A stretch of DNA of 60,996 nt, taken from positions 1-60,996 of the forward strand of contig JBDTRK010000006.1 in assembly GCA_039931685.1 (NCBI GenBank), in the 5' to 3' direction. Shown here one piece after another: positions 17,353-56,984 of this stretch. Position 1 is the first letter of the stretch. Every line of letters begins with the position of its first letter. Source of the DNA: Betaproteobacteria bacterium (GTDB lineage Bacteria > Pseudomonadota > Gammaproteobacteria > Burkholderiales > JACQAP01). Both the position numbers and the translations under genes were made by a program. A model generated the notes under the pieces. That model saw nothing but the letters and a program-made list of their open reading frames with translations. It was not told where the DNA came from and ran no database searches.

Positions 17353-17375
17353 GAAACCTCCGTTTGCGACGACTC

Positions 17376-17403
17376 TAATTGACGTTTACGTTAACGTCAA
17401 TTA
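17376..17403. promoter_or_regulatory. LiuR operator upstream of the liu operon
   Basis: Near-perfect 28-bp palindrome TAATTGACGTTTACGTTAACGTCAATTA with three ACGT cores spaced 6 nt apart, matching the TT(G/T)ACGTnnACGT(C/A)AA LiuR box. Confidence 0.85.
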
Positions 17404-17538
17404 AATACGTCGTTTTCGCCCATAAAACTATTTTGTTTCAGTTAGTTAATACTATTGAACGACGGGTCGCATGACGCGGCGATCTGACCTCCCGACCAAG
17501 CGCGATTTATTGCGCAACAAATGATAATTATCAATCAT

Positions 17539-22756: not shown

Positions 22757-22794
22757 AAAAAAAAGCCGCCGGCATTCTGCCTGGCGGCTTTTTT
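22757..22794. terminator. Bidirectional intrinsic terminator
   Basis: A8-GCCGCCGGCA-TTC-TGCCTGGCGGC-T6 between convergent genes. Confidence 0.85.
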
Positions 22795-26563: not shown

Positions 26564-26593
26564 CGAAAAGGGCTGCCGTGGCAGCCCTTTTCG
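26564..26593. terminator. Intrinsic terminator hairpin
   Basis: Perfect inverted repeat CGAAAAGGGCTGCC-GT-GGCAGCCCTTTTCG. Confidence 0.85.
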
Positions 26594-35378: not shown

Positions 35379-35480
35379 AGACGAGCGCGCGCCAGACATT
35401 TACACTAACGTAGCCGGATAATCACCAATTCGCAATCCTGGTCCGCACCAGGATGCATTGAATCGCAGGGAGCGAAATTC

Positions 35481-39213: not shown

Positions 39214-39245
39214 AAAGCCTGCCTCTTCAGAGGCGGGCTTTTTTT
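39214..39245 (+). terminator. Intrinsic terminator
   Basis: AAAGCCTGCCTCT-TC-AGAGGCGGGC-T7. Confidence 0.8.
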
Positions 39246-41383: not shown

Positions 41384-41501
41384 AAGCGATGATGCGTCGA
41401 TGCCTGACCCATTGTTCCACTGCTTTACGCAGTTATGGTCGAAGACCGCAGTCCGCAGAACCCCGCGCGCTCCCACTCACGCGCTCACATGCATTTGAAC
41501 C

Positions 41502-42290: not shown

Positions 42291-42303
42291 TTACGCCGAC
42301 TAC

Positions 42304-42469
42304 ACCCAACGCAGAGGCGCAGAGGACGCAGAGAAGAACGAGAACGTTAGGACGTAGGCGGATCATGCGCGCTACCAATCCTGATTATCGGTTAAATGAT
42401 ATGGCTGACATTTCCAGATTCTCTCTGCGCCCTCCGTTTCCTCTGCGGCTCCGCGGCTCTGCGTTGGGT
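42304..42469. repeat. MITE-like intergenic element A with periodic CGCAGAG inverted repeats
   Basis: Left ACCCAACGCAGAGGCGCAGAGGACGCAGAG; right (reverse complement) ACCCAACGCAGAGCCGCGGAGCCGCAGAG. Confidence 0.8.
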
Positions 42470-42483
42470 TGAGGTGCTAGAGA

Positions 42484-43380
42484 ATGAGTTTCTTTTTTGA
42501 GGTGTTGATCGGCGGGCTGCTGGCGGGGGTGATGTACTCGCTGGTGGCGCTCGGCTTCGTGCTGATCTACAAGGCCTCCGGCGTATTCAACTTTGCGCAG
42601 GGGGCGATGGTCTTTTTTGCCGCGCTGACTTTCGTCGGACTGCAGGAAAAGTTCGCGCTGCCGTTCTGGGGCGCGTTCGTGCTGGCGCTGGCGGCCATGG
42701 TGGTGCTGGGCATCCTGACCGAGCGCATCGTGCTGCGCCCGCTGGTGAACCAGCCGCAGATCACTTTGTTCATGGCCACCATCGGCCTGTCATTCTTCAT
42801 CGAAGGCCTGGCGCAACTGATCTGGGGCACCAACGTGCGCCGCCTCGACCTCGGCATCACCGACGAACCGATCGCAGCCGTGCTCGAGCGCTTCGACATG
42901 GCGATCAGCAGTTTCGACCTGGCCGCCGCCCTCGTGGCCGGCGTGCTGGTCACGGTGCTGGCGGTTTTTTTCCAGGTGACCCGCGTCGGCCGCGCTTTGC
43001 GCGCAGTGGCCGACGATCACCAAGCCGCGCTGGCCGTGGGTATACCGCTGCGACAGATCTGGGCGATCGTGTGGTCGGTGGCAGGTTTTGTCGCCCTGGT
43101 CGCCGGACTGATGTGGGGCGCGCGCAATGGCGTGCAGTATGCCCTGACCTTCGTCGCGCTCAAGGCCCTGCCGGTGCTCATCCTGGGTGGATTCGAGTCC
43201 GTCCTCGGCGCCATTGTCGGCGGGCTGATCATCGGGGCGTTGGAGAAGCTGGCGGAAGTCTATCTCGGCCCGCACATCGGCGGCGGCATCGAGGGTTGGT
43301 TCGCCTACATGATGGCCCTGCTGTTCCTGCTCGTTCGTCCCGAGGGTTTGTTCGGAGAGAAGCGCATAGACCGGGTTTAG
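42484..43380 (+). CDS. Branched-chain amino acid-type ABC permease (LivH-like)
   Basis: GLLAGVMYSLVALGFVLIYKASGVFNFAQG, GRALRAVADD, RPEGLFG. Confidence 0.93.
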   Translation: MSFFFEVLIGGLLAGVMYSLVALGFVLIYKASGVFNFAQGAMVFFAALTFVGLQEKFALPFWGAFVLALAAMVVLGILTERIVLRPLVNQPQITLFMATIGLSFFIEGLAQLIWGTNVRRLDLGITDEPIAAVLERFDMAISSFDLAAALVAGVLVTVLAVFFQVTRVGRALRAVADDHQAALAVGIPLRQIWAIVWSVAGFVALVAGLMWGARNGVQYALTFVALKALPVLILGGFESVLGAIVGGLIIGALEKLAEVYLGPHIGGGIEGWFAYMMALLFLLVRPEGLFGEKRIDRV

Positions 43381-43392
43381 GGACGCTACGTC

Positions 43393-43427
43393 TTACCAAT
43401 CACAATTCACCATTCACCAATAACCAA
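43393..43427 (+). repeat. Degenerate heptamer tandem array (TCACCAA-type x5)
   Basis: TTACCAA TCACAAT TCACCAT TCACCAA TAACCAA running into the next ATG. Confidence 0.75.
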
Positions 43428-44503
43428 TGTTTTACCGCGAAGCCGGACAGTTCAAAACCACCTACGCCGCAGACCAGGCGCTGTTCCCGATCCACCAGGA
43501 CCGCTACGCGATGATGGTCATTTTGGCAATTGCGTTCATCGGCGTACCGCTGTTCGCCAGCGACTATTGGCTAACCGCCCTGCTGATTCCTTTCCTGGTG
43601 TTCTCGCTGGCCGCACTCGGACTGAACATCCTCACCGGGTACGCCGGGCAGCTTTCGTTGGGCACGGCGGCCTTCATGGCGGTGGGTGCCGTCGCCGCCT
43701 ACAACTTCCAGTTGCGCATTCCAGGTATGCCGATCCTGCTGAGTTTTCTACTGGGCGGCGCGACGGCGGCGCTGGTCGGCATCCTGTTCGGCCTGCCGAG
43801 CCTGCGCATCAAGGGCTTTTATCTTGCCGTCGCCACGCTGGCGGCGCAGTTCTTCATCCCCTGGCTGGTGACCAAGGTCGGCTGGTTCTCCAACTATTCC
43901 GCTTCGGGCGTGATCAGCGCACAACCGATCGAAATCCTCGGCAAGGCATTCGATTCGCCGCAGGAGAAGTATCTGCTGGTGCTCGCTATTGTCGCCCTGC
44001 TGGCGCTGCTGGCTAAAAACCTGGTGCGCAGCCGCATCGGCCGGGCCTGGATGGCGGTGCGCGACATGGACGTCGCCGCGGAAGTCATCGGCATCCGCAT
44101 TCTGCGCACCAAGCTGATCGCATTTGCGGTGAGCTCGTTTTATTGTGGTGTGGCCGGTGCGCTGTATGCGTTTGCCTACCTCGGCAACGTCGAGCCGGAC
44201 GGATTCAACCTGGACCTCTCTTTCCGCATCCTGTTCATGGTTATCATCGGCGGCGTGGGCAGCATTCTCGGCTCTTTCCTGGGTGCCGCCTTCATCACGC
44301 TGATGCCGATCCTGCTCGATGTGCTGTTGACTCATGGCAGCCGGGCATTCAACCTGAACCTGGAGCCGGGCGTTACATCCATGGTCCAATTGCTGGTGTT
44401 CGGCGCGCTGATCATATTTTTTCTGATCGTGGAACCGCACGGTTTGGCGCGTTTGTGGCAGATTACAAAAGAAAAATTACGACTCTGGCCATTTCCCTAT
44501 TAG
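43427..44503 (+). CDS. Branched-chain amino acid-type ABC permease (LivM-like)
   Basis: MFYREAGQFKTTY, GLNILTGYAGQLSLG, GRAWMAVRD, EPHGLA. Confidence 0.93.
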   Translation: MFYREAGQFKTTYAADQALFPIHQDRYAMMVILAIAFIGVPLFASDYWLTALLIPFLVFSLAALGLNILTGYAGQLSLGTAAFMAVGAVAAYNFQLRIPGMPILLSFLLGGATAALVGILFGLPSLRIKGFYLAVATLAAQFFIPWLVTKVGWFSNYSASGVISAQPIEILGKAFDSPQEKYLLVLAIVALLALLAKNLVRSRIGRAWMAVRDMDVAAEVIGIRILRTKLIAFAVSSFYCGVAGALYAFAYLGNVEPDGFNLDLSFRILFMVIIGGVGSILGSFLGAAFITLMPILLDVLLTHGSRAFNLNLEPGVTSMVQLLVFGALIIFFLIVEPHGLARLWQITKEKLRLWPFPY

Positions 44504-44531
44504 AAGCGCAGACAACACGAAATCGGAGGAC

Positions 44532-45857
44532 ATGATGAGTACATGGAAAAAAATGGCGATTGCGCTGTTCGCGCTCGCCGGCGGACTGGCAATGGTCGTT
44601 CCTGTCGCAGCGCAGCAGGCCGGCACCCAGTTCATGGGCATCCTGGGATACCGGGTCGGTCCCTACGGCGCCAATGGCGCGGCCTTCTTCACCGGCTTTC
44701 TCGACTACCTCGCGCTGGTTAATGAGCGCGACAGCGGCATCAACGGCGTCAAACTGTCGTGGGAAGAATGTGAAACCGAGTACAACAACGCCAAGGGCAT
44801 CGAGTGCTACGAGCGCCTGAAGACCCGGAACGAAACCGGCCCCACGGCGATCCATCCGATGTCCACCGGAATTACCTACGGCCTGATCGACAAGGCGCCG
44901 GTGGACAAGATTCCGCTGATCACGCTGGGCTATGGGCGCACGGATGCAACCGACGGCCGCGTCTTCCCGTGGGTCTTTCCGATTCTCTCCAATTACTGGG
45001 ACGCGGCCACCGGCATCGTCAAGTTCATCGGCGACAAGGAAGGCGGCAGCGGCAAATTGAAGGGCAAGAAAATCGTGTTGCTGTACCACGACTCGGCCTA
45101 CGGCAAGGAACCGCATCCGGTTCTGGAAGCCGAGGCGGCGAAACTTGGTTTCGAATTGAAACTGATCCCGGTCCCGCATCCGGGCAACGAGCAACAATCA
45201 CAATGGCTGCAGATCCGCCAATACAAACCCGACTGGGTGATCCTTTGGGGTTGGGGCGTCATGACCGCCACTGCGCTGTCGACCGCGCAGAAAGTCGGCT
45301 TCCCGCGCGACAAGATGATCGGCAACTGGTGGGCGGGATCCGAGATCGATACCGAGGCCGCCGGTCCGGCATCGGAGGGCTATTACGCCGCCAGCCTGAA
45401 TCTGGCGGGCAAGAATTTCAGCGTCGTGAAGGACGTCGAAAAATTCGTCTATGGCAAAGGCAAGGGCGGAGACCCCAAACTGGTCGGCACGGTGCTGTGG
45501 AATCGCGGCCTCGCAGCGGCCATGTATACGGTCGAGGCGGTGCGCACCGCACAGGGCAAATACGGCAAAAAGCCAATGACCGGTGAACAGACGCGCTGGG
45601 GAATCGAAAACCTGAACGTGGACCAGAAACGCCTGGACCAACTCGGTTTCGGCGGCATGGTGCCCCCGCTCAGGTTGTCCTGCTCGGATCATGGCGGCAG
45701 CGGTCTGGTGCGCTTCCAGCAATGGGAAGGCGGCAAATGGAATCCCGTTTCCGAATGGATGAGCGGCGACAAGGCCATGGTGCGCAAGATGGTGGAGGAA
45801 TCCGCCGCGAAATACGCGATCGAGAAGGGCATCACGGCGGGATGCATGAAGGGTTAG
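44532..45857 (+). CDS. ABC substrate-binding protein (Liv-type periplasmic)
   Basis: Signal peptide; EECETEY...GIECYERLK, YHDSAYGKE, WGWGVM. Confidence 0.92.
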   Translation: MMSTWKKMAIALFALAGGLAMVVPVAAQQAGTQFMGILGYRVGPYGANGAAFFTGFLDYLALVNERDSGINGVKLSWEECETEYNNAKGIECYERLKTRNETGPTAIHPMSTGITYGLIDKAPVDKIPLITLGYGRTDATDGRVFPWVFPILSNYWDAATGIVKFIGDKEGGSGKLKGKKIVLLYHDSAYGKEPHPVLEAEAAKLGFELKLIPVPHPGNEQQSQWLQIRQYKPDWVILWGWGVMTATALSTAQKVGFPRDKMIGNWWAGSEIDTEAAGPASEGYYAASLNLAGKNFSVVKDVEKFVYGKGKGGDPKLVGTVLWNRGLAAAMYTVEAVRTAQGKYGKKPMTGEQTRWGIENLNVDQKRLDQLGFGGMVPPLRLSCSDHGGSGLVRFQQWEGGKWNPVSEWMSGDKAMVRKMVEESAAKYAIEKGITAGCMKG

Positions 45858-45862
45858 ACGAC

Positions 45863-45930
45863 AGGGACGAGGGCCGAATTTAGAAAGCCGGGAGCCTTGC
45901 CCCCGGCCCTCGTTCCTCCGCCCTCGTACC
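45863..45930. repeat. Inverted repeat with CCCTCGT-type heptamers
   Basis: AGGGACGAGGGCCG ... CGGCCCTCGTTCCT, continuing as CCCTCGT TCCTCCG CCCTCGT. Confidence 0.6.
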
Positions 45931-45972
45931 ATTCGCCATTTTTTCCGACTTCAGCTGAAGCCAGCCCATGCG

Positions 45973-46791
45973 ATGACCGAACCCGCTGCAGACGTCCTCC
46001 TCGCCATCAACAACGTCGAGGTAATCTACGATCATGTCATCCTGGTGCTCAAGGGTGTATCGCTCGAAGTCAGGGACGGCACGATCGTGGCGTTGCTGGG
46101 TGCGAATGGCGCCGGCAAGACGACCACGCTGAAGGCGATTTCGAATCTGCTTTCCTCCGAACGCGGCGACGTGACCAAGGGTTCGATCGAATTCCGTGGA
46201 CAACGCATCGACCAGCTCACGCCCTGGGAGTTGGTGAAACGCGGTGTGGTGCAAGTCATGGAAGGCCGGCACTGCTTCCAGCACCTGAGCGTTGAAGAAA
46301 ACCTGCTGACCGGTGCTTTCACATGCAGCGCCAACCGCGCCGCGATCCGTCACGACCTGGAAAAGGTTTATCAATATTTTCCGCGACTGAAGGATCGACG
46401 CAAAAGCCTGGCCGGCTATACGTCTGGCGGCGAGCAACAGATGACCGCCATCGGCCGCGCGCTGATGGCCAGGCCGAGCATGATCCTGCTCGACGAACCG
46501 TCGATGGGCCTTGCACCGCAGATCGTCGACGAAATATTCGAAATCGTGCGCGGGCTCAACGAAAACGAGAAAGTAAGCTTCCTGCTGGCCGAGCAGAATA
46601 CCAACGTCGCCTTGCATCATGCCGACTATGGCTACATTCTGGAAAACGGACGCGTAGTCATGAACGGCCCGGCCGCCGACCTGGCCCGCAATGAAGATGT
46701 AAAGGAGTTCTACCTGGGCCTGTCGACCGCCGGTCGCAAAAGTTTCCGCGACGCCAAACACTACCGCCGCCGCAAGCGTTGGCTCGCCTAA
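45973..46791 (+). CDS. ABC ATP-binding protein (LivF-like)
   Basis: GANGAGKTT, SGGEQQM, LLDEPSMGLAP, AEQN, YRRRKRWL. Confidence 0.94.
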   Translation: MTEPAADVLLAINNVEVIYDHVILVLKGVSLEVRDGTIVALLGANGAGKTTTLKAISNLLSSERGDVTKGSIEFRGQRIDQLTPWELVKRGVVQVMEGRHCFQHLSVEENLLTGAFTCSANRAAIRHDLEKVYQYFPRLKDRRKSLAGYTSGGEQQMTAIGRALMARPSMILLDEPSMGLAPQIVDEIFEIVRGLNENEKVSFLLAEQNTNVALHHADYGYILENGRVVMNGPAADLARNEDVKEFYLGLSTAGRKSFRDAKHYRRRKRWLA

Positions 46792-46808
46792 TGATTAAGG
46801 AAGCGCTC

Positions 46809-46953
46809 ACCGCAGAGGACGCGGAGGAAAAACATGAGCGAGATCGGCAATGCGAACTGGTGCGCGTGCCATGGCATTGTTTCTCTGTTGCAATGTTGTA
46901 GTACCTTTCACCCAAATACGCTTTTCCTCTGCGTCCTCCGCGTCCTCTGCGGT
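46809..46953. repeat. MITE-like intergenic element B
   Basis: Perfect 20-bp terminal inverted repeat ACCGCAGAGGACGCGGAGGA; right arm has an extra 9-mer unit. Confidence 0.85.
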
Positions 46954-46964
46954 TAGACCTAATC

Positions 46965-48212
46965 ATGAAGATTGAAAACGAGTATTACGACGATTTAGAA
47001 ACGCGCGACCCGGAACTGCGCGAGCGTGCGCTGATGAGCGCATTGCCCGGGCAGATCCGGCATGCGAAGGCGAACACCGTTTATTTCGCGCGGCTGTTGC
47101 GCGACGTCGAGCCGGATGCGATTCGCGATCGCAAGGCACTGGTCGGACTGCCGGTCACGCGCAAGTCCGATTTGATCGCACTACAAAGGCAATCCCCGCC
47201 GTTCGCCGGCATGACCGCGGTCGCGACGGGGGATCTTGGCAGGTTGTTCTCCTCCCCCGGTCCCATATACGACCCGCAGGGCGCGCGCGGGGATTTCTGG
47301 CGCTTCGGCCGTGCCTTGTTCGCGGCCGGTTTCCGGCGCGGCGACCTGGTGCACAACACCTTCTCGTATCACTTCTCCCCGGCCGGATTCATGATGGACC
47401 TCGCCGCGCAGGCCGTGGGTTGCGCAGTCTTTCCTGCCGGCACCGGGCAGACCGAATTGCAGGTTGCGGCCATTGCCGACATGAAACCGAATGGCTATGC
47501 CGGCACGCCCTCCTTCCTGAAAATCATTCTCGACAAGGCGGACGAATTACAAACGGATGTCAGCAGCCTGAGGAAGGCAAGCGTATCCGGTGAAGCCCTG
47601 TTGCCGCCGGTGCGCGAAATGCTCAGGAGCCGCGGCATCGACGTGCGCCAGTCCTACGGCACGGCGGACCTGGGATTGATCGCCTACGAGACCGAACCGA
47701 TGGGCGGCCTCGTTGTGGACGAGGGCGTCATCGTCGAAATCCTGCGCCCGGGCACGGGCGACCCGGTTGCCGAGGGCGAAGTCGGCGAAATCGTCGTCAC
47801 CACGCTAAGCAACGAATACCCGCTGATCCGTTTCGCCACGGGCGACTTGTCGGCCCTCGCGCCGGGCGTGAGCGCCTGCGGCCGCACCAACATGCGCATC
47901 AAGGGCTGGATGGGTCGCGCCGACCAGACCACGAAAGTCAAAGGCCTGTTCGTGCATCCGTCCCAGGTGGACCAGATCGTCAGACGTCACCCGGAAATCC
48001 TCAAGGCACGGCTCACGGTGGAGCACGATGTCGAACGCAGTGATCGGATGCGTTTGCGTTGCGAGGTGCGAAACCGCAGTGAAACACTCTCCCAGGCAAT
48101 TGCCGGCAGCGTGCGCGATGTCTGCAAGCTGCGCGGGGAAATCGAATTCGCCGACATCGGTTCGCTGCCCAACGACGGAAAGATCATCGAAGACCTGAGG
48201 AAATACGATTAG
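46965..48212 (+). CDS. Phenylacetate-CoA ligase-like AMP-binding protein
   Basis: YYDDLETRDP, SPGPIYDP, YGTADLG, RFATGDLS, GRADQTTKVKG, LPNDGKIIED. Confidence 0.88.
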   Translation: MKIENEYYDDLETRDPELRERALMSALPGQIRHAKANTVYFARLLRDVEPDAIRDRKALVGLPVTRKSDLIALQRQSPPFAGMTAVATGDLGRLFSSPGPIYDPQGARGDFWRFGRALFAAGFRRGDLVHNTFSYHFSPAGFMMDLAAQAVGCAVFPAGTGQTELQVAAIADMKPNGYAGTPSFLKIILDKADELQTDVSSLRKASVSGEALLPPVREMLRSRGIDVRQSYGTADLGLIAYETEPMGGLVVDEGVIVEILRPGTGDPVAEGEVGEIVVTTLSNEYPLIRFATGDLSALAPGVSACGRTNMRIKGWMGRADQTTKVKGLFVHPSQVDQIVRRHPEILKARLTVEHDVERSDRMRLRCEVRNRSETLSQAIAGSVRDVCKLRGEIEFADIGSLPNDGKIIEDLRKYD

Positions 48213-48220
48213 GACGATTT

Positions 48221-48364
48221 TCACCACAGAGGCACAGAGGACACGAAGAAAATCTTTCTAACAAATAAGAAGCTGGAATCGATGTCCGTTCGGGATATCT
48301 TGCACTTTGACTTAGCGATAAGTCTGCCAGTTCTTCATCTATGTCCTGCGTGCCTCTGTGGTGA
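48221..48364. repeat. MITE-like intergenic element C
   Basis: Left TCACCACAGAGGCACAGAGGACAC; right (reverse complement) TCACCACAGAGGCACGCAGGACAT; AT-rich interior. Confidence 0.85.
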
Positions 48365-48388
48365 TATTTCTAATTTTCCGGAGACCGA

Positions 48389-48976
48389 ATGTCTACGCAA
48401 CCAATCAGTAAATACCCGGTACCAAAACTCGATGATCTGCCCGCCGACATCCGCGACAAGATGCTCGAGGTGCAGAAGAAGGCCGGATTCATCCCCAATG
48501 TGTTCGTGACGCTGGCGCACCGTCCGGGCGAGTTTCGCGCCTTTTTCGCCTATCACGACGCGCTGATGCTCAGGGAATCCGGCCTGTCTAAGGCCGAAAA
48601 GGAAATGATCGTGGTCGCCACCAGCGGACTGAGCCAGTGCCCGTACTGCGTGATCGCGCACGGCGCCATCCTGCGCATTTATGCGAAGAATCCGCAGATC
48701 GCCGACCAGGTGGCAGTTCATCATCGCCGTGCTGAGCTTTCTGCGCGGCAAAAGGCTATGCTGGACTTCGCCTGCAAGCTCTCGCGCACGCCGGAAGCCC
48801 TGACCGATGCGGACCACGAAATCCTGATGGGGCACGGATTCAGCGCGGAAGACATCTGGGACATCGGCGGCATCACCGCTTTTTTCGCGCTTTCCAATCG
48901 CATGGCGCATCTGATCGACATGCGCCCGAACGATGAGTTTTACCTGATGGGCCGCCTGCCACCGCCGGGAAAATGA
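48389..48976 (+). CDS. AhpD/CMD-family peroxidase-related enzyme
   Basis: GFIPNVF, EKEMIVVATS...CPYCVIAHGA, FALSNR, PNDEFY. Confidence 0.9.
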   Translation: MSTQPISKYPVPKLDDLPADIRDKMLEVQKKAGFIPNVFVTLAHRPGEFRAFFAYHDALMLRESGLSKAEKEMIVVATSGLSQCPYCVIAHGAILRIYAKNPQIADQVAVHHRRAELSARQKAMLDFACKLSRTPEALTDADHEILMGHGFSAEDIWDIGGITAFFALSNRMAHLIDMRPNDEFYLMGRLPPPGK

Positions 48977-49021
48977 TGCACCGCAGCGTCGCAGTCCGGA
49001 GCGGCTGCGGCACGCCCACGG

Positions 49022-49030
49022 TGCTATAAT
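49022..49030 (+). promoter_or_regulatory. Extended -10 promoter for aceEF
   Basis: TGCTATAAT (TGn + TATAAT) 80 nt upstream of the aceE ATG. Confidence 0.6.
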
Positions 49031-49110
49031 TTTTTGGCAAAACGGAAACAGTGCCACAAACGCTGCGTTCCCCTGAAAAATGGCAGCAGCAACCTTACCA
49101 AGGTAGAGAC

Positions 49111-51771
49111 ATGGCGGCACTTCCGGACGATGATCAGCAGGAAACGAGTGAATGGCTGGACGCGCTAGACGGCATTCTGCAGCACGAGGGCCCCGAACGC
49201 GCACACTTCATCCTTGAGCAGTTGATCGAAAAGGCGCGGCGCTCAGGCGCCTACCTCCCCTTTAGCGCCAACACCGCCTACATCAATACCATCCCGCCCG
49301 GCCAGGAAGAAGCCTCCCCCGGCGATCATGAACTGGAGCACCGCATCCGCTCCTATGTGCGCTGGAACGCGGCGGCCATGGTCTTGCGCGCCAACAAGCA
49401 TTCCTCGGAACTCGGCGGCCATATCGCCAGTTTCGCCTCCGCGGCGACACTGTATGACGTGGGTTTCAACCACTTCTGGCACGCCCCGTCGGAAAACCAT
49501 GGCGGCGACCTGGTGTTCATACAAGGACATTCGGCACCCGGCGTCTATGCGCGCGCTTTCATGCTCGGAAGGCTGACGAAGGAGCAGATGGACAGCTTCC
49601 GCCAGGAAGTGGACGGCAAAGGCCTGTCTTCCTATCCGCACCCGTGGTTGATGCCGGACTTCTGGCAGTTCCCGACAGTGTCGATGGGGCTCGGGCCGAT
49701 CATGGCCATCTATCAGGCGCGTTTCATGAAGTACCTGCAGGACCGCGGACTCGCCAACACGGAAGCGCGCAAGGTCTGGTGTTTCCTGGGCGATGGCGAG
49801 ATCGACGAACCGGAATCTATGGGTGCGATCGGCGTGGCTGCGCGCGAGAAGCTCGACAACCTGATTTTCGTCGTCAACTGCAACTTGCAGCGCCTGGATG
49901 GGCCGGTGCGCGGCAACGGCAAGATCATTCAGGAACTGGAATCGGATTTCCGCGGGGCCGGCTGGAACGTGATCAAGGTGATCTGGGGATCGTACTGGGA
50001 TCCGCTACTGGCGCGCGACCTCGACGGCCTGCTGGTACGGCGCATGGATGAAGCAGTGGATGGCGAATACCAGACCTTCAAATCCAAGGACGGCGCGTAC
50101 GTGCGCAAGCATTTCTTCGGCAAGTATCCGGAGTTGCTGAAGATGGTCGCCAACATGTCCGACGACGATATCTGGCGGCTCAATCGCGGCGGCCACGATC
50201 CGCACAAGATGTATGCCGCATACGCGGCGGCGGTCAAGACGTCAGGCCAGCCCACCGTTATCCTGGCCAAGACCATCAAGGGTTACGGCATGGGCGAAGC
50301 CGGAGAAGCGCAGAACATCACCCACCAGCAGAAGAAAATGGGCACGACGTCCTTGCGGGCGTTTCGCGACCGCTTCGACCTGCCGGTGCCCGACGACAAG
50401 CTCGACGAAATTCCCTACCTGACCTTCGAGGAAGGCTCGCCAGAACTCGAGTACATGCGCAAGCACCGCGAGGCACTGGGCGGATACCTACCTACGCGCA
50501 GGCAAAAGGGCGATACGCTGGAAATCCCGCCCTTGTCAGCCTTCGAGCCGCTGCTGAAAAGCTCAGAGGAACGCGAGTCGTCGACCACCATGGCGTTCGT
50601 GCGCATCCTCAACATCCTGGTCAAGGACAAGAACATCGGCAAGCGCGTGGTGCCGATCGTGCCGGACGAGTCACGCACCTTCGGCATGGAAGGCATGTTC
50701 AGGCAGCTTGCCATCTGGTCCTCCGTCGGCCAGCTGTATACGCCGCAGGACGCAGACCAGCTGATGTTCTACAAGGAAGACAAACAGGGCCAGATCCTGC
50801 AGGAGGGCATCAACGAACCCGGCGCGATGTCCTCGTGGATCGCCGCGGCGACATCGTACTCGAATCACGGCGTGTCGATGATCCCGTTCTACATTTATTA
50901 CTCCATGTTCGGCTTCCAGCGCGTGGGCGACCTGGCCTGGGCGGCGGGCGACCAGCGTGCGCGCGGCTTCATGCTCGGCGGCACCTCCGGGCGCACGACG
51001 TTGAACGGCGAAGGCCTGCAGCACGAGGACGGCCACAGCCACATCCTGTCCTCGACCATTCCTAACTGCATTTCGTACGACCCGAGCTACGCCTACGAAG
51101 TCGCGGTCATCATTCAGGACGGCCTGCGCCGCATGTTCAAGGAGCAGGAGGATGTTTTCTACTACATCACGCTGTTGAACGAAAATTACGTCCAGCCGGC
51201 AATGCCCAAGGGCGTCGAGGAAGGCATCCTCAAGGGCATGTACCGACTCTCCGAGGGCAAAGGCAAAAAGGACGCGCCGCGCGTTCAGTTGCTGGGTAGC
51301 GGCGCGATCCTGCGCGAGGTTATCGCCGCGCAGGACCTGCTGGAAAAGGATTTCGGCGTCGCCGGCGATGTTTGGAGCTGCCCCAGCTTCAATGAACTGC
51401 GCCGCGAAGGGCAGGATGCGCAACGCTGGAACCTGCTGCATCCGGAAGCCAAGCCGCGCGAAACCTACGTCGGCCGCTGCCTGAACGCAGCGCCAGGCCC
51501 GGTGGTGGCCGCAACCGATTACATGAAGCTGTTCGCCGACCAGATCCGGCCGTTCATCTACAAGCACTATGTCGTACTGGGCACGGACGGCTTCGGCCGC
51601 TCGGACTTTCGCCGCCAGTTGCGCAAGTTCTTCGAGGTCGACCGCTACTATGTGACCGTGGCGGCGCTGAAGGCGTTGGCCGACGAAGGCACCATCCCTG
51701 CGGCAACGGTGGCAAAGGCAATCAAGAAATACGGCATCGATCCCGAAAAGCCGAACCCGGTCACCGTCTGA
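49111..51771 (+). CDS. aceE: Pyruvate dehydrogenase E1 (homodimeric type)
   Basis: ETSEWLDAL, GGHIASFAS, TVSMGLGP, GDGE..EPES, NCNLQRLDGPV, GEGLQHEDG, GTDGFGRSD. Confidence 0.97.
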   Translation: MAALPDDDQQETSEWLDALDGILQHEGPERAHFILEQLIEKARRSGAYLPFSANTAYINTIPPGQEEASPGDHELEHRIRSYVRWNAAAMVLRANKHSSELGGHIASFASAATLYDVGFNHFWHAPSENHGGDLVFIQGHSAPGVYARAFMLGRLTKEQMDSFRQEVDGKGLSSYPHPWLMPDFWQFPTVSMGLGPIMAIYQARFMKYLQDRGLANTEARKVWCFLGDGEIDEPESMGAIGVAAREKLDNLIFVVNCNLQRLDGPVRGNGKIIQELESDFRGAGWNVIKVIWGSYWDPLLARDLDGLLVRRMDEAVDGEYQTFKSKDGAYVRKHFFGKYPELLKMVANMSDDDIWRLNRGGHDPHKMYAAYAAAVKTSGQPTVILAKTIKGYGMGEAGEAQNITHQQKKMGTTSLRAFRDRFDLPVPDDKLDEIPYLTFEEGSPELEYMRKHREALGGYLPTRRQKGDTLEIPPLSAFEPLLKSSEERESSTTMAFVRILNILVKDKNIGKRVVPIVPDESRTFGMEGMFRQLAIWSSVGQLYTPQDADQLMFYKEDKQGQILQEGINEPGAMSSWIAAATSYSNHGVSMIPFYIYYSMFGFQRVGDLAWAAGDQRARGFMLGGTSGRTTLNGEGLQHEDGHSHILSSTIPNCISYDPSYAYEVAVIIQDGLRRMFKEQEDVFYYITLLNENYVQPAMPKGVEEGILKGMYRLSEGKGKKDAPRVQLLGSGAILREVIAAQDLLEKDFGVAGDVWSCPSFNELRREGQDAQRWNLLHPEAKPRETYVGRCLNAAPGPVVAATDYMKLFADQIRPFIYKHYVVLGTDGFGRSDFRRQLRKFFEVDRYYVTVAALKALADEGTIPAATVAKAIKKYGIDPEKPNPVTV

Positions 51772-51783
51772 CCGCGGCCGCAA

Positions 51784-51818
51784 TTACCATTCACCAATCA
51801 CCAATTACCAGTCACTGA
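51784..51818 (+). repeat. Degenerate heptamer tandem array (TCACCAA-type x5)
   Basis: TTACCAT TCACCAA TCACCAA TTACCAG TCACTGA between aceE and aceF. Confidence 0.8.
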
Positions 51819-51827
51819 ACTCAAAAC

Positions 51828-53141
51828 ATGGGCAGCCTCAGAGACGTCCTTGTTCCCGACATCGGGGACTTCAAGAACATTCCGGTCATCGAAGTTCTGG
51901 TCAAGCCTGGCGACGCCGTGAAGGCGGAGGACTCGCTGATCACCCTCGAATCCGACAAGGCGACGATGGAAGTGCCGGCGCCGTTTGCCGGCGTGGTCAA
52001 GGAATTGAAGATCAAGCCCGGCGACAAGATATCCGAAGGCGTCGTGATCCTCAGCCTGGAAGTCAGCGAAGCCGCCGTAACCCCGGCGACGCCAGCGCCC
52101 GCGGCGGCGCAGAAACCTGCCGCGGCACCGGCGCCTACACCGGTCACGCCAGCGTCGCCAGCGGCACCCGCCCCCGCGCCTGTCGCCGCTATGCAAAATA
52201 CGGAACCGGCCCGAATCGACGAAGCGGGCTTCGCGCTCGCCCACGCCAGCCCGTCGGTGCGCCGCTTCGCGCGTGAGCTCGGCGTCGATCTCGGTCGCGT
52301 CAAAGGCAGTGGCCCGAAGGAACGCATCCTGAAGGAAGACATCGCCGGTTTCGTCAAGTCCGCGCTGGCGCAGCCGGGCGGTGGCGGTGGCGGCGGACTG
52401 TCGCTTGGGCTGCCGGCATGGCCACAGGTGGATTTCGCGAAATTCGGCCCGGTGGAAAATCAGGCGTTGTCGCGCATCAAGAAAATCTCCGGGCCGTACC
52501 TGCACCGCAACTGGGTATCGATCCCGCACGTGACACAGAACGACGATGCCGACATCACCGAACTCGAGGCCTTCCGCAAGGGCATGGCCGACGAGGCGCA
52601 GAAGCAGGGCGTGAAACTCACGCCGCTCGCCTTCATCATGAAGGCGGTCGTCAGCGCGCTGAAAAACCACCCGGAGTTCAATTCCTCGCTTGCGCCCGCG
52701 GGCGACGCGCTGATCCTGAAGCACTACTATCACATCGGCGTCGCGGTCGACACGCCGGGCGGACTGGTGGTGCCCGTGGTGCGCGACGTCGACCAGAAAG
52801 GCGTGCTGCAACTGGCGAAGGAACTCGCGGAAATCAGCGCCAAAGCGCGTGACGGCAAGCTCGGGCCAGCCGACATGCAGGGGGGCACATTCTCCATTTC
52901 CAGCCTGGGTGGTATCGGCGGCACGCATTTCACACCCATCATCAATGCACCGGAAGTCGCGATCCTCGGCGTATCGAAGGCGTCGATGAAACCGCTGTGG
53001 AAGGACGGACAGTTCGTGCCGCGCCTGATGATGCCCTTGTCGCTGTCTTACGACCACCGCGCGGTGGACGGGGCGCAAGGTGCGCGGTTTATTACGACCT
53101 TGTCGATGGTCCTTTCGGACATTCGACGCGTTCTTCTGTGA
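51828..53141 (+). CDS. aceF: Dihydrolipoamide acetyltransferase E2 (one lipoyl domain)
   Basis: [17 protein letters not shown], Ala/Pro linker, [22 protein letters not shown]. Confidence 0.96.
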
Positions 53142-53255
53142 ACGGTGATCGGTAATCAGTAATCGGTCAAAACGCGCTTTGCCGGTGTTCCCTGTTTATG
53201 GTCAAAGACCGGTATCCAGCGAAGCTGGGCGCTATTCACTGTTCACTGTTCACCG
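53136..53255. repeat. Inverted pair of heptamer arrays
   Basis: Left CTGTGAA CGGTGAT CGGTAAT CAGTAAT CGGTCAA (53136-53170); right TTCACTG TTCACTG TTCACCG (53235-53255). Confidence 0.75.
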
Positions 53256-53258
53256 CAG

Positions 53259-53930
53259 TTGAGTTCCGCAACCCCCATCGGCATCCTGGGCGGGACTTTC
53301 GATCCCATCCATTTCGCCCATTTGCGCCTGGCCGAGGAGCTCGCCGATGCCATCGGCCTGTCCAGGGTGCGTTTCATTCCAACCGGCACCCCGCCTCATC
53401 GGGGCCAACCCCGGGTAAGCGGAGCGCAGCGCATGGAAATGCTGCGCCTGGCCATCGGCGGCAATCCGCGCTTCGAGGCCGATGACCGCGAAATCCGTCG
53501 CCAGGGCGTCTGTTACACCTTCGACACGCTGGTCGAGTTGCGCGCCGAATTGGGGGCGCGTCCGCTTTGCCTGTTGATGGGCTCTGACGCCTTTTCCGCC
53601 TTGACCACCTGGCATCGCTGGGAGGAATTATTTGACCTGGCGCATATCGTGATTGCCCATCGCCCGGGGTATTCGCTACACCAGTTGCAGTCTTCCCTGC
53701 CCGGCCCGCTGCGCAAGATCTACCTGCAGCGGCTGAGCGCCTCCACCGGCATCCTGCGGCGCGACAGCGCGGGCGCGGTCTACGTGCGCGAAATTACCGC
53801 GCTGGATATTGCTGCGACCCAGATCAGGGGGCTGCTTGCCGGCGGGGGCAGCGCGCGCTATCTGGTCCCGGAGGCCGTTCTCGATTACATTGAAACCAGT
53901 CGTCTTTACAAGGAACGCGATGCACGTTGA
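53259..53930 (+). CDS. nadD: Nicotinate-nucleotide adenylyltransferase
   Basis: GILGGTFDPIHFAHL, PPHR, YTFDTL, LMGSDAF, WHRW. Confidence 0.95.
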   Translation: MSSATPIGILGGTFDPIHFAHLRLAEELADAIGLSRVRFIPTGTPPHRGQPRVSGAQRMEMLRLAIGGNPRFEADDREIRRQGVCYTFDTLVELRAELGARPLCLLMGSDAFSALTTWHRWEELFDLAHIVIAHRPGYSLHQLQSSLPGPLRKIYLQRLSASTGILRRDSAGAVYVREITALDIAATQIRGLLAGGGSARYLVPEAVLDYIETSRLYKERDAR

Positions 53931-54306
53931 AGCCGTAAGACAAGCTGCCGTCGAGGCGCTGGAAGAAATCAAGGCAAGGGACATCACCGTCCTCGATGTC
54001 CGCAAAATGACCGCCTTGTTCGACTACATGATCGTCGCCACCGCCGAATCGGCGCGCCAGACCAAGGCGCTGGCAAAGAACGTCGAGGAAAAGCTCAAAG
54101 GGCTGGGAATCAGAGTCCAGGGGCTGGAAGGCGAAAAAACCGGCGAATGGGTGCTGGTCGATCTGGGAGACGTCATCGTGCATGTGATGCAACCCGCGAT
54201 CCGCGCGTATTACAACCTCGAGCAATTATGGGGTGGCCGCCCCCCCTCCCCCCACCCCACCAACTGGAAAAACGCCCCGGGGGCGGAACCGCCCGCTGCG
54301 CTCTAG
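53920..54306 (+). CDS. rsfS: Ribosome silencing factor
   Basis: [28 protein letters not shown]...[10 protein letters not shown]; ATG 53920. Confidence 0.93.
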
Positions 54307-54325
54307 GTTCGCGCTTCCTGCCAGT

Positions 54326-54808
54326 TTGAAGCTGCACATCCTCAGCATCGGCCACAAGCCTCCCGCCTGGGTGGCGGCCGGATTCGAGGACTATGTCCGG
54401 CGCATGCCGCGGGAAGCGCGCATCGAGCTCACCGAGATAAAGCCCGCCCCCCGCAGCCGGCAGGCGCAGTCCGCGACCTCGATTTTCCAGATCCTGGGCG
54501 TGGAAAAGTCCCGTCTGCTTGCTGCCCTGCCGGCAGGCTGTGTAAGAATAGCGCTGGACGAACGTGGCAAGCAGCTCACCACGGTCGAGCTTGCCCGCAA
54601 ACTGGCAGGCTGGATGCAGGAGGGGCGCGACGTCGGGTTCATGATCGGCAGCGCCGACGGGCTCGACCAGGAGCTGAAGAACGGTGCCGATCTCCAGCTT
54701 GCCCTGTCGGCGATGACGCTTCCGCATGCCATGGTGCGGGTGCTGCTCGCCGAGCAACTGTACCGCGCGATATCGATGCTGCAGAACCACCCTTATCACC
54801 GGGAATAA
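54326..54808 (+). CDS. rlmH: 23S rRNA m3Psi1915 methyltransferase
   Basis: [44 protein letters not shown]; TTG start. Confidence 0.95.
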
Positions 54809-54848
54809 CGCCCCTGACGGGCGCAACAATACCAAGAGCCGAAACCAC

Positions 54849-55469
54849 GTGGCGTCGCTGGAAAAACATATCTACCTCGCCTCGCGCAGCGCGCGACGCC
54901 GCGATCTGCTCAAGCAGATGGGCGTCAATTTCGAGATGCTGCTGCTGCGCGAAGGGGCCGGCCGCGATGCCGATTTCAATGAAACGCCGATCGGCAATGA
55001 GTTGCCGCGCGATTACGTCGTGCGCGTCGCCCGCCTTAAGGCAGAAGCCGGTTGGCTGCGCCTGGAGCAGCGCCGACTGATGCGCCATCCGGTACTGGCC
55101 GGCGACACCACGGTGGCCTTCAACGACACCATCCTCGCCAAGCCGCGCGATCGCGAGGACGCGGTAGCGATGCTCAAGCAGCTTTCCGGCGTCACGCATG
55201 TTGTCTATACCGCGGTGGCCGTTAAATTCCACGATGCACTGCAGGAGGCGCTTTCCGTGACCGAAGTACGCCTGCGCGAACTTTCCGACGACGAGATCCG
55301 GCGTTACGTTTCCAGCGGCGACCCGATGGACAAGGCCGGCGCCTATGGCATCCAGGGCAAGGCATCGATGTTTATAGAATCCATCAATGGCAGTTACAGC
55401 GGCGTGGTTGGGCTGCCGATGTTCGAGACCTCGCGCATCCTTACCCATTTCGGCTTCCAGTTGCTGTGA
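54849..55469 (+). CDS. maf: Maf family nucleoside triphosphate pyrophosphatase (YhdE-like)
   Basis: IYLASRSARRRDLL, AGDTTV, KPRD, DKAGAYGIQG, GVVGLP. Confidence 0.94.
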   Translation: MASLEKHIYLASRSARRRDLLKQMGVNFEMLLLREGAGRDADFNETPIGNELPRDYVVRVARLKAEAGWLRLEQRRLMRHPVLAGDTTVAFNDTILAKPRDREDAVAMLKQLSGVTHVVYTAVAVKFHDALQEALSVTEVRLRELSDDEIRRYVSSGDPMDKAGAYGIQGKASMFIESINGSYSGVVGLPMFETSRILTHFGFQLL

Positions 55470-56920
55470 ACGACGAGATCCTGATCAACGTCACCCCGCA
55501 GGAAACGAGGGTCGCGGTGATGCAGCAGGGGGTCGCCCAGGAATTGCACGTCGAGCGCAGCGCGAGCCGCGGCATCGTGGGCAATATCTACGTCGGCGAG
55601 GTCAGCCGCGTATTGCCGGGCATGCAATCCGCCTTCATTCAGATCGGTCTGGATCGCGCCGCCTTCCTGCATGTCGCCGACATCTGGTCGCACCGCCAGA
55701 ATCAGGAGGAGGTCAAGCCGATCGAGCGCATCCTGCAAGATGGCCAGCGGCTGTTGGTGCAGGTCATCAAGGATCCGATCGGCACCAAGGGCGCGCGGCT
55801 GTCGACCCAGATCAGCATTGCCGGACGGCTGCTGGTTTACCTGCCGCAGGAGTCCCACATCGGCATCTCGCAGCGCATCGAAGATGAGACCGAACGAGCC
55901 CTGCTGCGCGAAAAGCTGCAACACCTGATTCCGGCCGAGGAAGCCGGCGGCTACATCGTACGCACCATGGCGGAGACGGCCAGCGAAAAAGAACTCGGCG
56001 CCGACATCGAATACCTGCGCAAGCTCTGGTCCGACATACGGGAAAGATCCAAGACGCTTGGCGCGCCGGCGCTGCTCTACCAGGACCTGGGCCTGTCGCT
56101 GCGCGTGCTGCGCGATTTTGTCAACGACGAAAGCGGCCGCATCCTGGTGGATTCGCGCGAGACCTTCCTGCGCATGCTGGCATTCGCAACCGAGTACACC
56201 CTGTCTTTTGTCGACCGTATCCATCATTACACCGGCGACCGGCCCCTATTCGACCTATATGGCGTCGAGGAAGAGATCGAGCGTGCGCTGGCGCGCCGCG
56301 TACCGCTGAAGTCCGGTGGCTACCTGATAATCGACCAGACCGAGGCATTGACCACGATCGACGTCAACACCGGCGGCTTCGTCGGCGGCCGCAATTTCGA
56401 CGACACCATATTCAAGACCAATCTGGAAGCCGCGCAGGTGATCGCGCGCCAGCTGCGGTTGCGAAACCTGGGCGGAATCATCATCATCGACTTCATCGAC
56501 ATGGATAACGAAATGCACCGCAACTCGGTGATGGCGGAATTCAAGAAGGCACTGCTGCCCGACCGCACGCGCATGACGGTCAACGGATTCACCCATCTCG
56601 GCCTGGTGGAGATGACGCGCAAGCGCACTAGGGAAAGCCTCGCGCATATCCTGTGCGAGCCCTGCCCGACCTGCCAGGCGCGCGGCGAAGTGAAGTCTGC
56701 GCAGACCATCTGCTACGAAATCCTGCGCGAACTGGTGCGCGAATCACGCCAATTCGACGCACGCGAGTTTCGCATTCTCGCTTCGCAGAAAGTCATCGAT
56801 ATCTTCCTCGACGAGGAATCCCAGAGCCTGGCGATGCTCGAGGAATTCATCGCCAAACCGATTTCCCTGCAAGTGGAATCGATCTACACGCAGGAGCAGT
56901 ACGACATCGTCTTGATGTAG
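55466..56920 (+). CDS. rng: Ribonuclease G
   Basis: ILINVTPQETRVA, GNIY.G.V.RVLPGMQSAF, DVNTG, DFIDM, EMTRKR, CPTC, EQYDIVLM. Confidence 0.96.
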   Translation: MNDEILINVTPQETRVAVMQQGVAQELHVERSASRGIVGNIYVGEVSRVLPGMQSAFIQIGLDRAAFLHVADIWSHRQNQEEVKPIERILQDGQRLLVQVIKDPIGTKGARLSTQISIAGRLLVYLPQESHIGISQRIEDETERALLREKLQHLIPAEEAGGYIVRTMAETASEKELGADIEYLRKLWSDIRERSKTLGAPALLYQDLGLSLRVLRDFVNDESGRILVDSRETFLRMLAFATEYTLSFVDRIHHYTGDRPLFDLYGVEEEIERALARRVPLKSGGYLIIDQTEALTTIDVNTGGFVGGRNFDDTIFKTNLEAAQVIARQLRLRNLGGIIIIDFIDMDNEMHRNSVMAEFKKALLPDRTRMTVNGFTHLGLVEMTRKRTRESLAHILCEPCPTCQARGEVKSAQTICYEILRELVRESRQFDAREFRILASQKVIDIFLDEESQSLAMLEEFIAKPISLQVESIYTQEQYDIVLM

Positions 56921-56924
56921 CAGA

Positions 56925-56984
56925 AGTGCTGAGTGCTGAGTGCTGAGTGCTGAGTGCTGAGTGCTGAGTGCTGAGTGCTGAGTG
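56925..56984 (+). repeat. Perfect heptamer tandem repeat (AGTGCTG)x8 + AGTG
   Basis: Eight exact copies starting 4 nt after the rng stop codon. Confidence 0.97.

Follow-up and report, generated by a model that had tools for sequence, protein, structure and literature searches.

The window analysed here, a stretch of 60,996 nt that constitutes contig C6 of the 3.66-Mb assembly of a betaproteobacterium (219 contigs, 98.6% complete), carries between 42.3 and 57.0 kb eight short repeat elements, which are probably long-resident, almost all cargo-less members of two related families of hairpin cassettes resembling the intervening sequences (IVSs) of bacterial 23S rRNA. The arms of the first family (class A, with C-R-C-R-R-A-G-G units) are the frame of a gene for a GxxExxY protein, and those of the second (heptamer or GTGA type) are the frame of a four-helix-bundle gene. 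The unit of inheritance consists of arms plus core, and gene-less copies are inherited vertically, with maintained stems and drifting cores. A first-pass annotation of the same DNA, which regarded the elements as empty, non-autonomous cassettes or scars of a targeted insertion/excision system, is partly supported by the present analysis: it was right on what the elements are, whereas how they move, or whether they are still moving at all, is unproven.

Hairpin elements of the window

The eight elements, with the sites and the two classes already proposed in the first-pass annotation, were confirmed by direct reading and with Tandem Repeats Finder, and the five with paired arms have much more stable predicted RNA folds than shuffles (z from -3.1 to -7.3).

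42300..42472, no strand assigned: A1, class-A cargo-less cassette at the junction of livG (stop 42290) and livH (start 42484)
43393..43423, + strand: single array of C-rich heptamers (TCACCAA-like) filling the livH-livM spacer, 3 nt short of the livM start
45858..45932, no strand assigned: small heptamer-type hairpin (GGGNCGA / GCCCTCG units), 3' of the stop of the binding-protein gene
46805..46958, no strand assigned: A2, class-A cargo-less cassette at the junction of livF and a paaK-like gene
48218..48368, no strand assigned: A3, class-A cargo-less cassette at the junction of the paaK-like gene and a peroxidase-related gene
51781..51815, + strand: single C-rich heptamer array (TCACCAA / TTACCA) in the aceE-aceF spacer, 12 nt short of the start codon
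53138..53258, no strand assigned: heptamer-type hairpin with degenerate arms at the aceF / nadD junction (z -3.1)
56925..56984, + strand: single G-rich array (AGTGCTG) x 8.6 with 100% identical units, 4 nt 3' of the rng stop, at a convergent junction

Class A is made up of three inverted pairs of 8/9-mer units, C(G/A)C(A/G)(G/A)AGG(N), with cores of 93-105 nt. In A1, a unique core separates a purine arm (42304-42340) from a pyrimidine arm (42435-42469), the outer ends are ACCCAAC and GTTGGGT, and the hairpin (stem score 19) has a predicted RNA minimum free energy of -76.5 (z -5.9). A2 has arms at 46806-46828 and 46925-46956 with the units CGCAGAGGA and CGCGGAGGA, outer ends CACCGC.. and ..GCGGT, a stem score of 20.5 and a z of -6.5, and A3 has arms at 48221-48243 and 48342-48364 with CACAGAGG units, outer ends CACCAC.. 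and ..GTGGTG, a stem score of 18 and a z of -7.3. These outer ends, (A/C)ACC or ACCCAAC with their complement, are the same as in gene-filled cassettes (28 of the 30 loci of relatives and many of the 70 cross-phylum loci described below). The other five elements are of the heptamer type: two single C-rich arrays, two hairpins and one single G-rich array. In the hairpin at 45858, the repeats span 45860-45928 (z -4.1), and in that at 53138 the arms lie at 53143-53167 (GGTGATC / GGTAATC) and 53235-53257 (TTCACTG); the unit types of both pairs (GTGAnnn / GAGGGnC / GGATTGn) match those found around PF05635 genes. The arrays at 43393, 51781 and 56925 consist of one arm only. As noted in the first-pass annotation, no cargo gene is present in the window, where neither a PF13366 / TIGR04256 nor a PF05635 gene was found between any arms.

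All eight elements map between called genes and disrupt none of them, as had been claimed, the gene order around them (from gene calls and NCBIfam) being acyl-CoA ligase, livG, livH, livM, binding protein, livF, paaK-like ligase, peroxidase-related, aceE, aceF, nadD, rsfS, rlmH, maf and rng, followed by a convergent benE. The absence of such elements from the first 41 kb also holds, with no intergenic array of 7-9-nt units detected there by Tandem Repeats Finder. The hairpin scan of this part yielded only five strong, non-periodic palindromes of near-zero loop (17367-17412, 22759-22794, 26564-26593, 35435-35454 and 39214-39241), which are probably ordinary terminators unrelated to the elements. 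No Rfam match was found at E <=0.1 between 41000 and 58000. In BLAST searches of the window elements against their own genome, no match of 60 nt or more was obtained besides the elements themselves, and only the arms recur; A2 alone gave 78 matches, restricted to its arms.

Two further observations concern individual elements. A2 (46830-46956) contains an open reading frame (ORF) of 42 codons, with an ATG seven nt past a perfect GGAGGA, that extends across the pyrimidine arm to a stop immediately beyond. The start, MSEIGNA, resembles the E-x-IG start of GxxExxY proteins, and this ORF, which profile searches do not detect, could be either the last remnant of such a gene or the result of chance. 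The starts of livM and aceF lack a Shine-Dalgarno sequence and follow A/C-rich heptamer arrays (43393-43429 and 51781-51830), and several single C-rich arrays across the genome end from -1 to 8 nt upstream of start codons. Translation initiation at livM and aceF may be non-canonical.

Cargo genes and their filled, empty and absent alleles

The genome contains one GxxExxY gene (TIGR04256 / PF13366) and three four-helix-bundle genes (TIGR02436 / PF05635), and all four are located inside matching inverted arrays. The GxxExxY gene, on another contig and between two same-strand genes, is framed by purine 9-mer arms (CGCCAGGGA / CGCGAGGGA), and the arm units of the bundle genes are GTGATTC, GCAATGA and CGTGACT. 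Among 40 genomes of relatives (24 of the same genus, with a threshold score of >=12 for inverted arms), 28 of 30 GxxExxY loci have inverted arms, all of them with class-A units and the outer ends of the three class-A elements of the window. Of 29 four-helix-bundle loci, 25 likewise have inverted arms, which are periodic in 24 cases (heptamers or GTGA-type 8/9-mers) and never of class A. Across the phylum, sampled evenly with 401 genomes, the GxxExxY gene occurs in 76 genomes (29 of 212 genera, mostly of one family), and 24 of 28 loci in this sample have arms, which share a CRCAGAG core. Arms are also present at 70 of 79 cross-phylum loci from named public genomes, which cover Bacteroidota, Cyanobacteria, Chloroflexota, Acidobacteriota, Planctomycetota, Verrucomicrobiota, several proteobacterial classes and two archaeal lineages. 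The arms are periodic at 63 of these loci and contain at least two CRCRRA(G/T) cores on the left side in 41, the proteins being 48-63% identical to the copy of this genome. The link between arms and cargo that the first-pass annotation had given was right and specific, and the arm unit is conserved far beyond what would be expected of a neutral spacer or of a mere stem.

The cargo genes follow the transcription of their surroundings. GxxExxY genes are co-oriented with both neighbours at 25 of 26 loci and bundle genes at 18 of 21, and the cargo has the same direction as the upstream gene at 26 of 26 and 20 of 21 loci, respectively, these loci not being independent since many are orthologous. 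The purine arm ends in a GGAGGA-like sequence a few nucleotides upstream of the cargo start. In the GxxExxY proteins, 29 sequences show no variation at the E of GxxE, the D and the ExK, and the ratio of nonsynonymous to synonymous substitution (dN/dS) is ~0.12 (9 usable of 21 pairs, the rest being saturated) and 0.19 (1 of 6 pairs) in two orthologous series; the cargo is under purifying selection. The predicted structure of the GxxExxY protein of this genome (pLDDT 92.7) has a PD-(D/E)XK core, and neither a sequence relative in the PDB nor a Foldseek match (E <=0.001) was found for the protein. The best VIA Z-scores were 8.5 for a restriction-endonuclease-like protein, 8.3 for the BpuSI nuclease domain and 8.0 for Cas4 SSO0001, with 6.5 for an archaeal Hjc, so the modelled fold shows a generic PD-(D/E)XK core and offers no specific clue. 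PF13366 is given as a family of unknown function in PMC3424549. No reverse transcriptase (PF00078) was found in the assembly.

A domesticated system, in which the cargo proteins would be host-useful nucleic-acid binders (post-transcriptional regulators or defence proteins) and the arrays their binding sites, forming a regulon, has a number of these data in its favour: the low dN/dS (~0.12), the invariant catalytic residues and the vertical copies, as well as the conservation of the unit sequence across phyla. The abundance of the arms also tracks the gene within the genus, where the two-unit class-A pattern has a median of 368 matches in 19 genomes with the gene versus 37 in 6 genomes without it (p = 0.007, uncorrected for phylogeny). 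Of the 15 other genera without a GxxExxY gene, 13 have 6 or fewer matches. PF05635 has been likened in PMC10053308 to the nucleic-acid-binding Avd of diversity-generating retroelements, and weak bAvd matches were obtained. Moreover, the binding of a regulator was proposed by MacGregor for heptamer arrays just upstream of starts (PMC4679880). However, no function unites the flanked genes (transport, CoA ligase, pyruvate dehydrogenase, NAD synthesis, RNase G), and congeners differ in whether a given junction is occupied. The gene also has a patchy distribution (29 of the 212 genera sampled in the phylum), no such gene was detected in one genome with 521 arm matches, and the arm sequences of the four-helix-bundle genes differ widely. 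Such a regulon is considered rather unlikely.

The relation between filled and gene-less cassettes becomes visible when the flanks of the filled cassettes of relatives are mapped onto this genome. Comparisons of orthologous junctions, which the first-pass annotation had suggested, reveal filled, empty, other-type and absent alleles in polymorphic spacers. Filled cassettes occupy a trpD|trpC-like junction both here and in three relatives (G009, G012 and G016), a second junction is filled in seven relatives and holds here an unrelated 1.8-kb gene on the opposite strand without arms (C22:2623-4633), and a third one, on contig C46, has a filled cassette in G015 and G004 and a gene-less class-A element here. 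A fourth junction, on contig C5, consists of TGA-c-ATG in this genome and measures 2-49 nt in 12 other genomes from several genera. The same junction contains a 485-nt filled cassette in operon orientation in G010, and a 178-nt element with the same ends as in G010 in G011, where ~15 N-terminal and ~12 C-terminal codons of the gene are left. In G012 it contains a chimera, in which another heptamer hairpin is attached to the right end. In one sub-lineage, a whole cassette entered at the precise point where a stop codon is followed by a start codon, and the gene-less copy of G011 is demonstrably an internal-deletion derivative of a filled cassette. Its core of ~115 nt is within the size range of the empty elements of this genome.

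Two other sequences enclosed by arms deserve mention. At the livF|paaK junction of G002 (L016:1109-1500), a 392-nt class-A element holds a minus-strand ORF of 72 amino acids (L016:1165-1383) that belongs to no Pfam family and may represent either cargo of a third kind or a gene in decay. An OmpA-family gene found between two arrays on contig C7 was rejected as cargo, being a host gene flanked by neighbouring elements.

Turnover of junctions and placement in the genome

Syntenic regions were recovered by two DNA searches from up to 24 genomes per junction, and the spacers that are occupied in the window vary widely in length.

livG|livH spacer: 24-240 nt
livH|livM spacer: 10-177 nt
binding protein|livF spacer: 49-263 nt
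livF|paaK spacer: -8 to 392 nt, plus one of 1283
paaK|peroxidase spacer: 90-304 nt
aceE|aceF spacer: 4-203 nt
aceF|nadD spacer: 28-179 nt

The spacers livM|binding protein, peroxidase|aceE, nadD|rsfS, rsfS|rlmH, rlmH|maf and maf|rng are near-constant, and four control junctions are empty in 17 of 18, 18 of 21, 18 of 18 and 14 of 15 genomes. At livF|paaK, a simple classifier found in 24 genomes six class-A pairs, one single class-A arm, ten other periodic hairpins and one array only, together with five spacers holding nothing and one short spacer. Close relatives lack the element at livG|livH (spacers of 24 nt and 31 nt). The array at 43393 has orthologues in G004, G019 and G024 and, in part, in G013, and other genomes have at livH|livM a CCCTCGC array, full hairpins, class-A elements or nothing. 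At the 45858 junction, 3-4 units of the same type are present in four genomes (G001, G002, G016 and G019). G004, G019 and G024 keep the aceE|aceF array together with an upstream GTGAATC hairpin of ~55 nt that is absent in this genome, and the aceF|nadD arm type is shared with orthologues in six genomes (G013, G014, G017, G019, G020 and G024). The (AGTGCTG) array 3' of rng is exclusive to this genome among 14 with a recovered rng 3' end. Over the age of a genus, junctions acquire elements, lose them and exchange one type for another.

Class-A elements that share their outer ends at one junction are orthologous, and two series of seven genomes each show how they are inherited. Compensatory changes affect 8 of 23 stem pairs in the livG|livH series, with 92.5% of cells paired, and 11 of 30 in the paaK|peroxidase series, with 89.6% of cells paired. 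None of 500 shuffles reaches the observed values, and slid controls pair in 34-52%. The cores of both series are barely alignable, the flanking genes being 75-88% identical.

Several composite states were observed at these junctions, such as a hairpin nested within another one at livH|livM of G012 (L021), a left class-A arm combined with a right heptamer arm at paaK|peroxidase of G022 (L022), and a tandem duplication of a whole class-A element plus the last codons of the upstream gene at the same junction of G034 (L031). Arms seem either to recombine or to serve as targets. A mini-palindrome of ~45-55 nt (GGATACC...TTATGGTCGAAGACCGGTATCC type) was found in the window at 53190-53232, nested in the 53138 hairpin, and at 41430-41465, as well as at C5:46535-46590, C61:6600-6660, C34:~214 and C148:~5071, inside or beside heptamer and class-A arms. 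Its core motif has six matches in the genome, all of them intergenic. The same palindrome is present in arms of relatives (G017, G020, G023 and G024, and reversed in G009 and G018), and a related insert of ~30 nt breaks arms in G014 and G006. The palindrome has the look of another tiny element, with the arms as its target.

The census of the whole genome relied on a crude gene caller (3537 genes, 90% coding). Intergenic positions account for 143 of 227 period-7 arrays, 44 of 157 period-8 arrays and 171 of 592 period-9 arrays, compared with 6 of 118 for period 6 and 15 of 289 for period 12. Among 1014 merged arrays, 258 have an inverted partner within 1.5 kb, versus 18 in a reversed-not-complemented control, and these 258 correspond to 165 distinct hairpins, totals to be taken as lower bounds because the ungapped partner census missed four of the five pairs of the window. 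An independent Smith-Waterman scan of 1814 spacers (40-700 nt) gave 440 hairpins with a score >=14 versus 63 in shuffles. Two periodic arms were found in 103 of these hairpins and one in 42 (145 in total), the chance rate being 17 of 880 shuffled arms. The genome-wide population comprises at least 145-165 hairpins with arms of tandem 7-9-nt units. The 15-kb cluster in the window is only mildly unusual for the genome: windows of 15 junctions with at least five occupied number 4 versus 0.37 expected, a value reached in 3.7% of permutations, and the census behind this figure is an undercount that includes one of the five pairs of the window.

Spacer occupancy is 10.4% for convergent (28 of 269), 6.1% for tandem (72 of 1178) and 0.8% for divergent spacers (3 of 367), which indicates that elements track gene 3' ends and avoid promoter regions. 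The preference for stop-start junctions inside operons proposed in the first-pass annotation was too narrow, given the higher occupancy of convergent than of tandem spacers. The position of the purine arm upstream, also proposed there, is partly automatic, as any X...rc(X) reads purine-first on both strands. The constancy of the order, on the other hand, is not trivial, with 45 purine-then-pyrimidine pairs versus 7 of the opposite order found by a class-A regular expression; the latter appear to be mostly adjoining elements or chance matches of the expression. The cores measure 80-148 nt in 43 of the 45 pairs and are unrelated in sequence. Polarity agrees with that of paired cassettes in 20 of 22 single arrays (G-rich near a stop in 11, C-rich near a start in 9), the other 2 showing the opposite.

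These data bear on two alternatives to the cassette reading. The elements could be host-selected hairpins, comparable to the intercistronic stems of repetitive extragenic palindromic sequences and bacterial interspersed mosaic elements (REP/BIME) and kept for mRNA processing, stability or termination, with genes as occasional lodgers and no mobility of the element. Stem pairing kept by compensatory change over drifting cores, the bias towards gene 3' ends with nearly empty divergent spacers, the largely vertical inheritance without target duplications and the occupation of the same junctions in most congeners would all fit this explanation. It nevertheless appears unlikely: selection on stems alone leaves unexplained the conservation of arms with GxxExxY genes across phyla and in archaea, and close relatives do without any element at livG|livH. 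Moreover, one insertion brought arms plus gene as a unit to a site where 12 other genomes and this one have none, and arm classes replace each other at one junction. Alternatively, the arrays could be mutational by-products without function or mobility, their units grown by replication slippage and their inverted partners both produced and maintained as perfect copies by quasi-palindrome correction (intrastrand template switching). Such an origin is favoured by the perfect (AGTGCTG) x 8.6 array exclusive to this genome and by the variable unit numbers among orthologues, and templated correction would also yield paired changes in the arms. However, this leaves unexplained the two arm families that track two unrelated cargos (28/30 and 25/29), the cross-phylum conservation of CRCRRAG, the constant purine-then-pyrimidine order, the co-orientation of the cargo and the near-absence from divergent spacers of similar length, and it is regarded as highly improbable.

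Mobility, proposed mechanism and known systems

The interpretation of the elements as empty cassettes is sustained by their arms and ends of the filled type and by one deletion derivative, whereas excision, recent transposition and target duplications were not seen, and several results weigh against it. No trace of a gene was found by protein hidden Markov models (HMMs) in 61 gene-less class-A cores (5 matches at E>6 versus 2 in shuffles), and DNA profiles of the gene ends gave no score >=8 in the same cores, the G011 derivative reaching 18.3 with the 3' profile. The idea that the cores are gene remnants is unsupported for these 61 cores, even though the method detects the known derivative. 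The narrow core range of 80-148 nt would not be predicted by random decay, and there are no intermediates between this range and the filled state of ~430 nt. In 45 class-A elements, target duplications were not detected, the longest string shared by the flanks being 4.29 versus 4.31 in controls with mismatched flanks. No near-identical cassettes in different contexts, such as recent transposition would leave, were found among 30 and 31 cargo loci, and G011 has its 521 arm matches with no GxxExxY gene detected. Finally, purifying selection on a cargo that is inherited vertically is equally compatible with a host-useful and a selfish gene. Pairs of similar cargo share their context in 29 and 14 cases and differ in 5 and 3 cases, these with 66-70% identity, so that mobility would be rare or ancient here. 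Suggestive flank repeats were observed in two places: TAA-n-ATG borders the G010/G011 insertion at either end, and CCTAAT does the same for A2.

In public reads, 22 runs contain parts of the stretch, none of them listed as RNA. In Logan contigs of four metagenomes (X1-X4), clean excision of an element was seen in none of the 15 joints listed out of 193, and contigs end at arrays. One Logan contig spans A3 with 1 difference, and another spans A2 with 7 differences and 9 gaps. In the region 42553-53164, the ends of short-read contigs fall exactly at arrays (43396, 46927, 51791 and 53140/53164).

In the case of the cassette reading, a mechanism can be proposed from the layout of the elements. The arms would be transcribed with the operon and would fold into an RNA stem of 20-30 bp to be cut by RNase III, whose gene (rnc) is present in the assembly. 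Cutting of the stem would make the insertion harmless and would free a cargo mRNA with its ribosome-binding site in the purine arm. Stems processed in this way would explain both the tolerated insertion and the occurrence of elements only in transcribed spacers. The conservation of CRCRRAG across phyla suggests that this unit is a putative recognition site of the GxxExxY nuclease, which could drive rare insertion or maintenance. Single arrays are probably half-elements, and a C-rich arm abutting a start codon would replace the Shine-Dalgarno region.

The elements share features with several known families of repeats. REP/BIME sequences and REPINs are dispersed, high-copy intergenic palindromes at gene 3' ends, in or after operons, and are presumably mobilised in trans by a gene present as one copy, that of RAYT, the REP-associated tyrosine transposase. 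In the present assembly, 98.6% complete, no RAYT/Y1 transposase gene was found (PF01797, 0 matches), and the present elements differ in having tandem-array arms with no GTAG/CGTC head instead of a 20-40-bp palindrome, unique cores, and associated genes inside the element. As in MITEs (miniature transposable elements with inverted repeats) such as Correia, ERIC and RUP, the elements are short, non-coding and intergenic, have terminal inverted repeats, and can originate by deletion, as in the step from G010 to G011. Unlike in MITEs, only the arms are shared, target duplications were not detected, the parent has no transposase of a known family and near-identical dispersed copies are missing. [quoted passage not shown] These transposons are eukaryotic, measure kilobases and use P-type or other transposases, so the analogy is one of design only and no homology is claimed.

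Cyanobacterial short tandemly repeated repetitive (STRR) sequences are tandem heptamer arrays in intergenic DNA, and the arrays at 43393 and 51781 are likewise direct heptamers close before start codons, the 56925 array lying after a stop. According to PMC4679880, the TAACTGA repeats of Beggiatoaceae, Cyanobacteria and Bacteroidetes are intergenic heptamers, many of them just upstream of starts without a canonical ribosome-binding site, with 169 direct sets and 1 indirect one, a patchy spread and no known spreading mechanism. Those reports link the arrays to neither inverted partners nor cargo, whereas here single arrays keep the polarity of the cassette. Another parallel is found in the 23S IVSs of Coxiella and Leptospira, which have complementary ends and an ORF of ~120 amino acids for a four-helix bundle in the loop, and were gained horizontally and then inherited vertically, their presence being tolerated because of the cutting of the stem by RNase III; the Coxiella IVS has a 28-bp stem cut in the middle (PMC4990558). 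The three PF05635 genes of this genome have the same layout, and the stems predicted in the window are long and supported by covariation. The differences are the location between protein-coding genes instead of in helix 9, 25 or 45 of the 23S rRNA, the arms of tandem 7-9-nt units, the second cargo of PD-(D/E)XK type with its own unit, and the lack of an ORF in most copies.

A broader proposal, put forward only tentatively, is that GxxExxY would be the dedicated nuclease of an unrecognised, Foldback-like class of mobile elements, the ends of which would be its own 8-9-nt sites. Such an element would insert between stop and start codons, travel within host operons, be rendered harmless by RNase III-cut stems and leave behind hundreds of empty copies responsive to the enzyme in trans, with the four-helix-bundle cassettes, the 23S IVSs and the STRR/TAACTGA arrays as a sister class and its debris. 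No published description of these cassettes was found in the literature searched, supplements of papers excluded. The additions made here are the genus-wide turnover of junctions, the covariation of the stems, the transition from filled to empty, the specificity between arms and cargo, and the selection on the cargo and its orientation.

With regard to annotation, at least 145-165 spacers of a 3.7-Mb genome are occupied by these elements, and the initiation regions of housekeeping genes such as livM and aceF are reshaped by them. The elements also cause breaks in short-read assemblies of this lineage, as in the four metagenomes. If true, the broader proposal would unite the origin of ORF-bearing IVSs of rRNA, the roles of the PF13366 and PF05635 proteins, and the abundance of heptamer arrays in several phyla.

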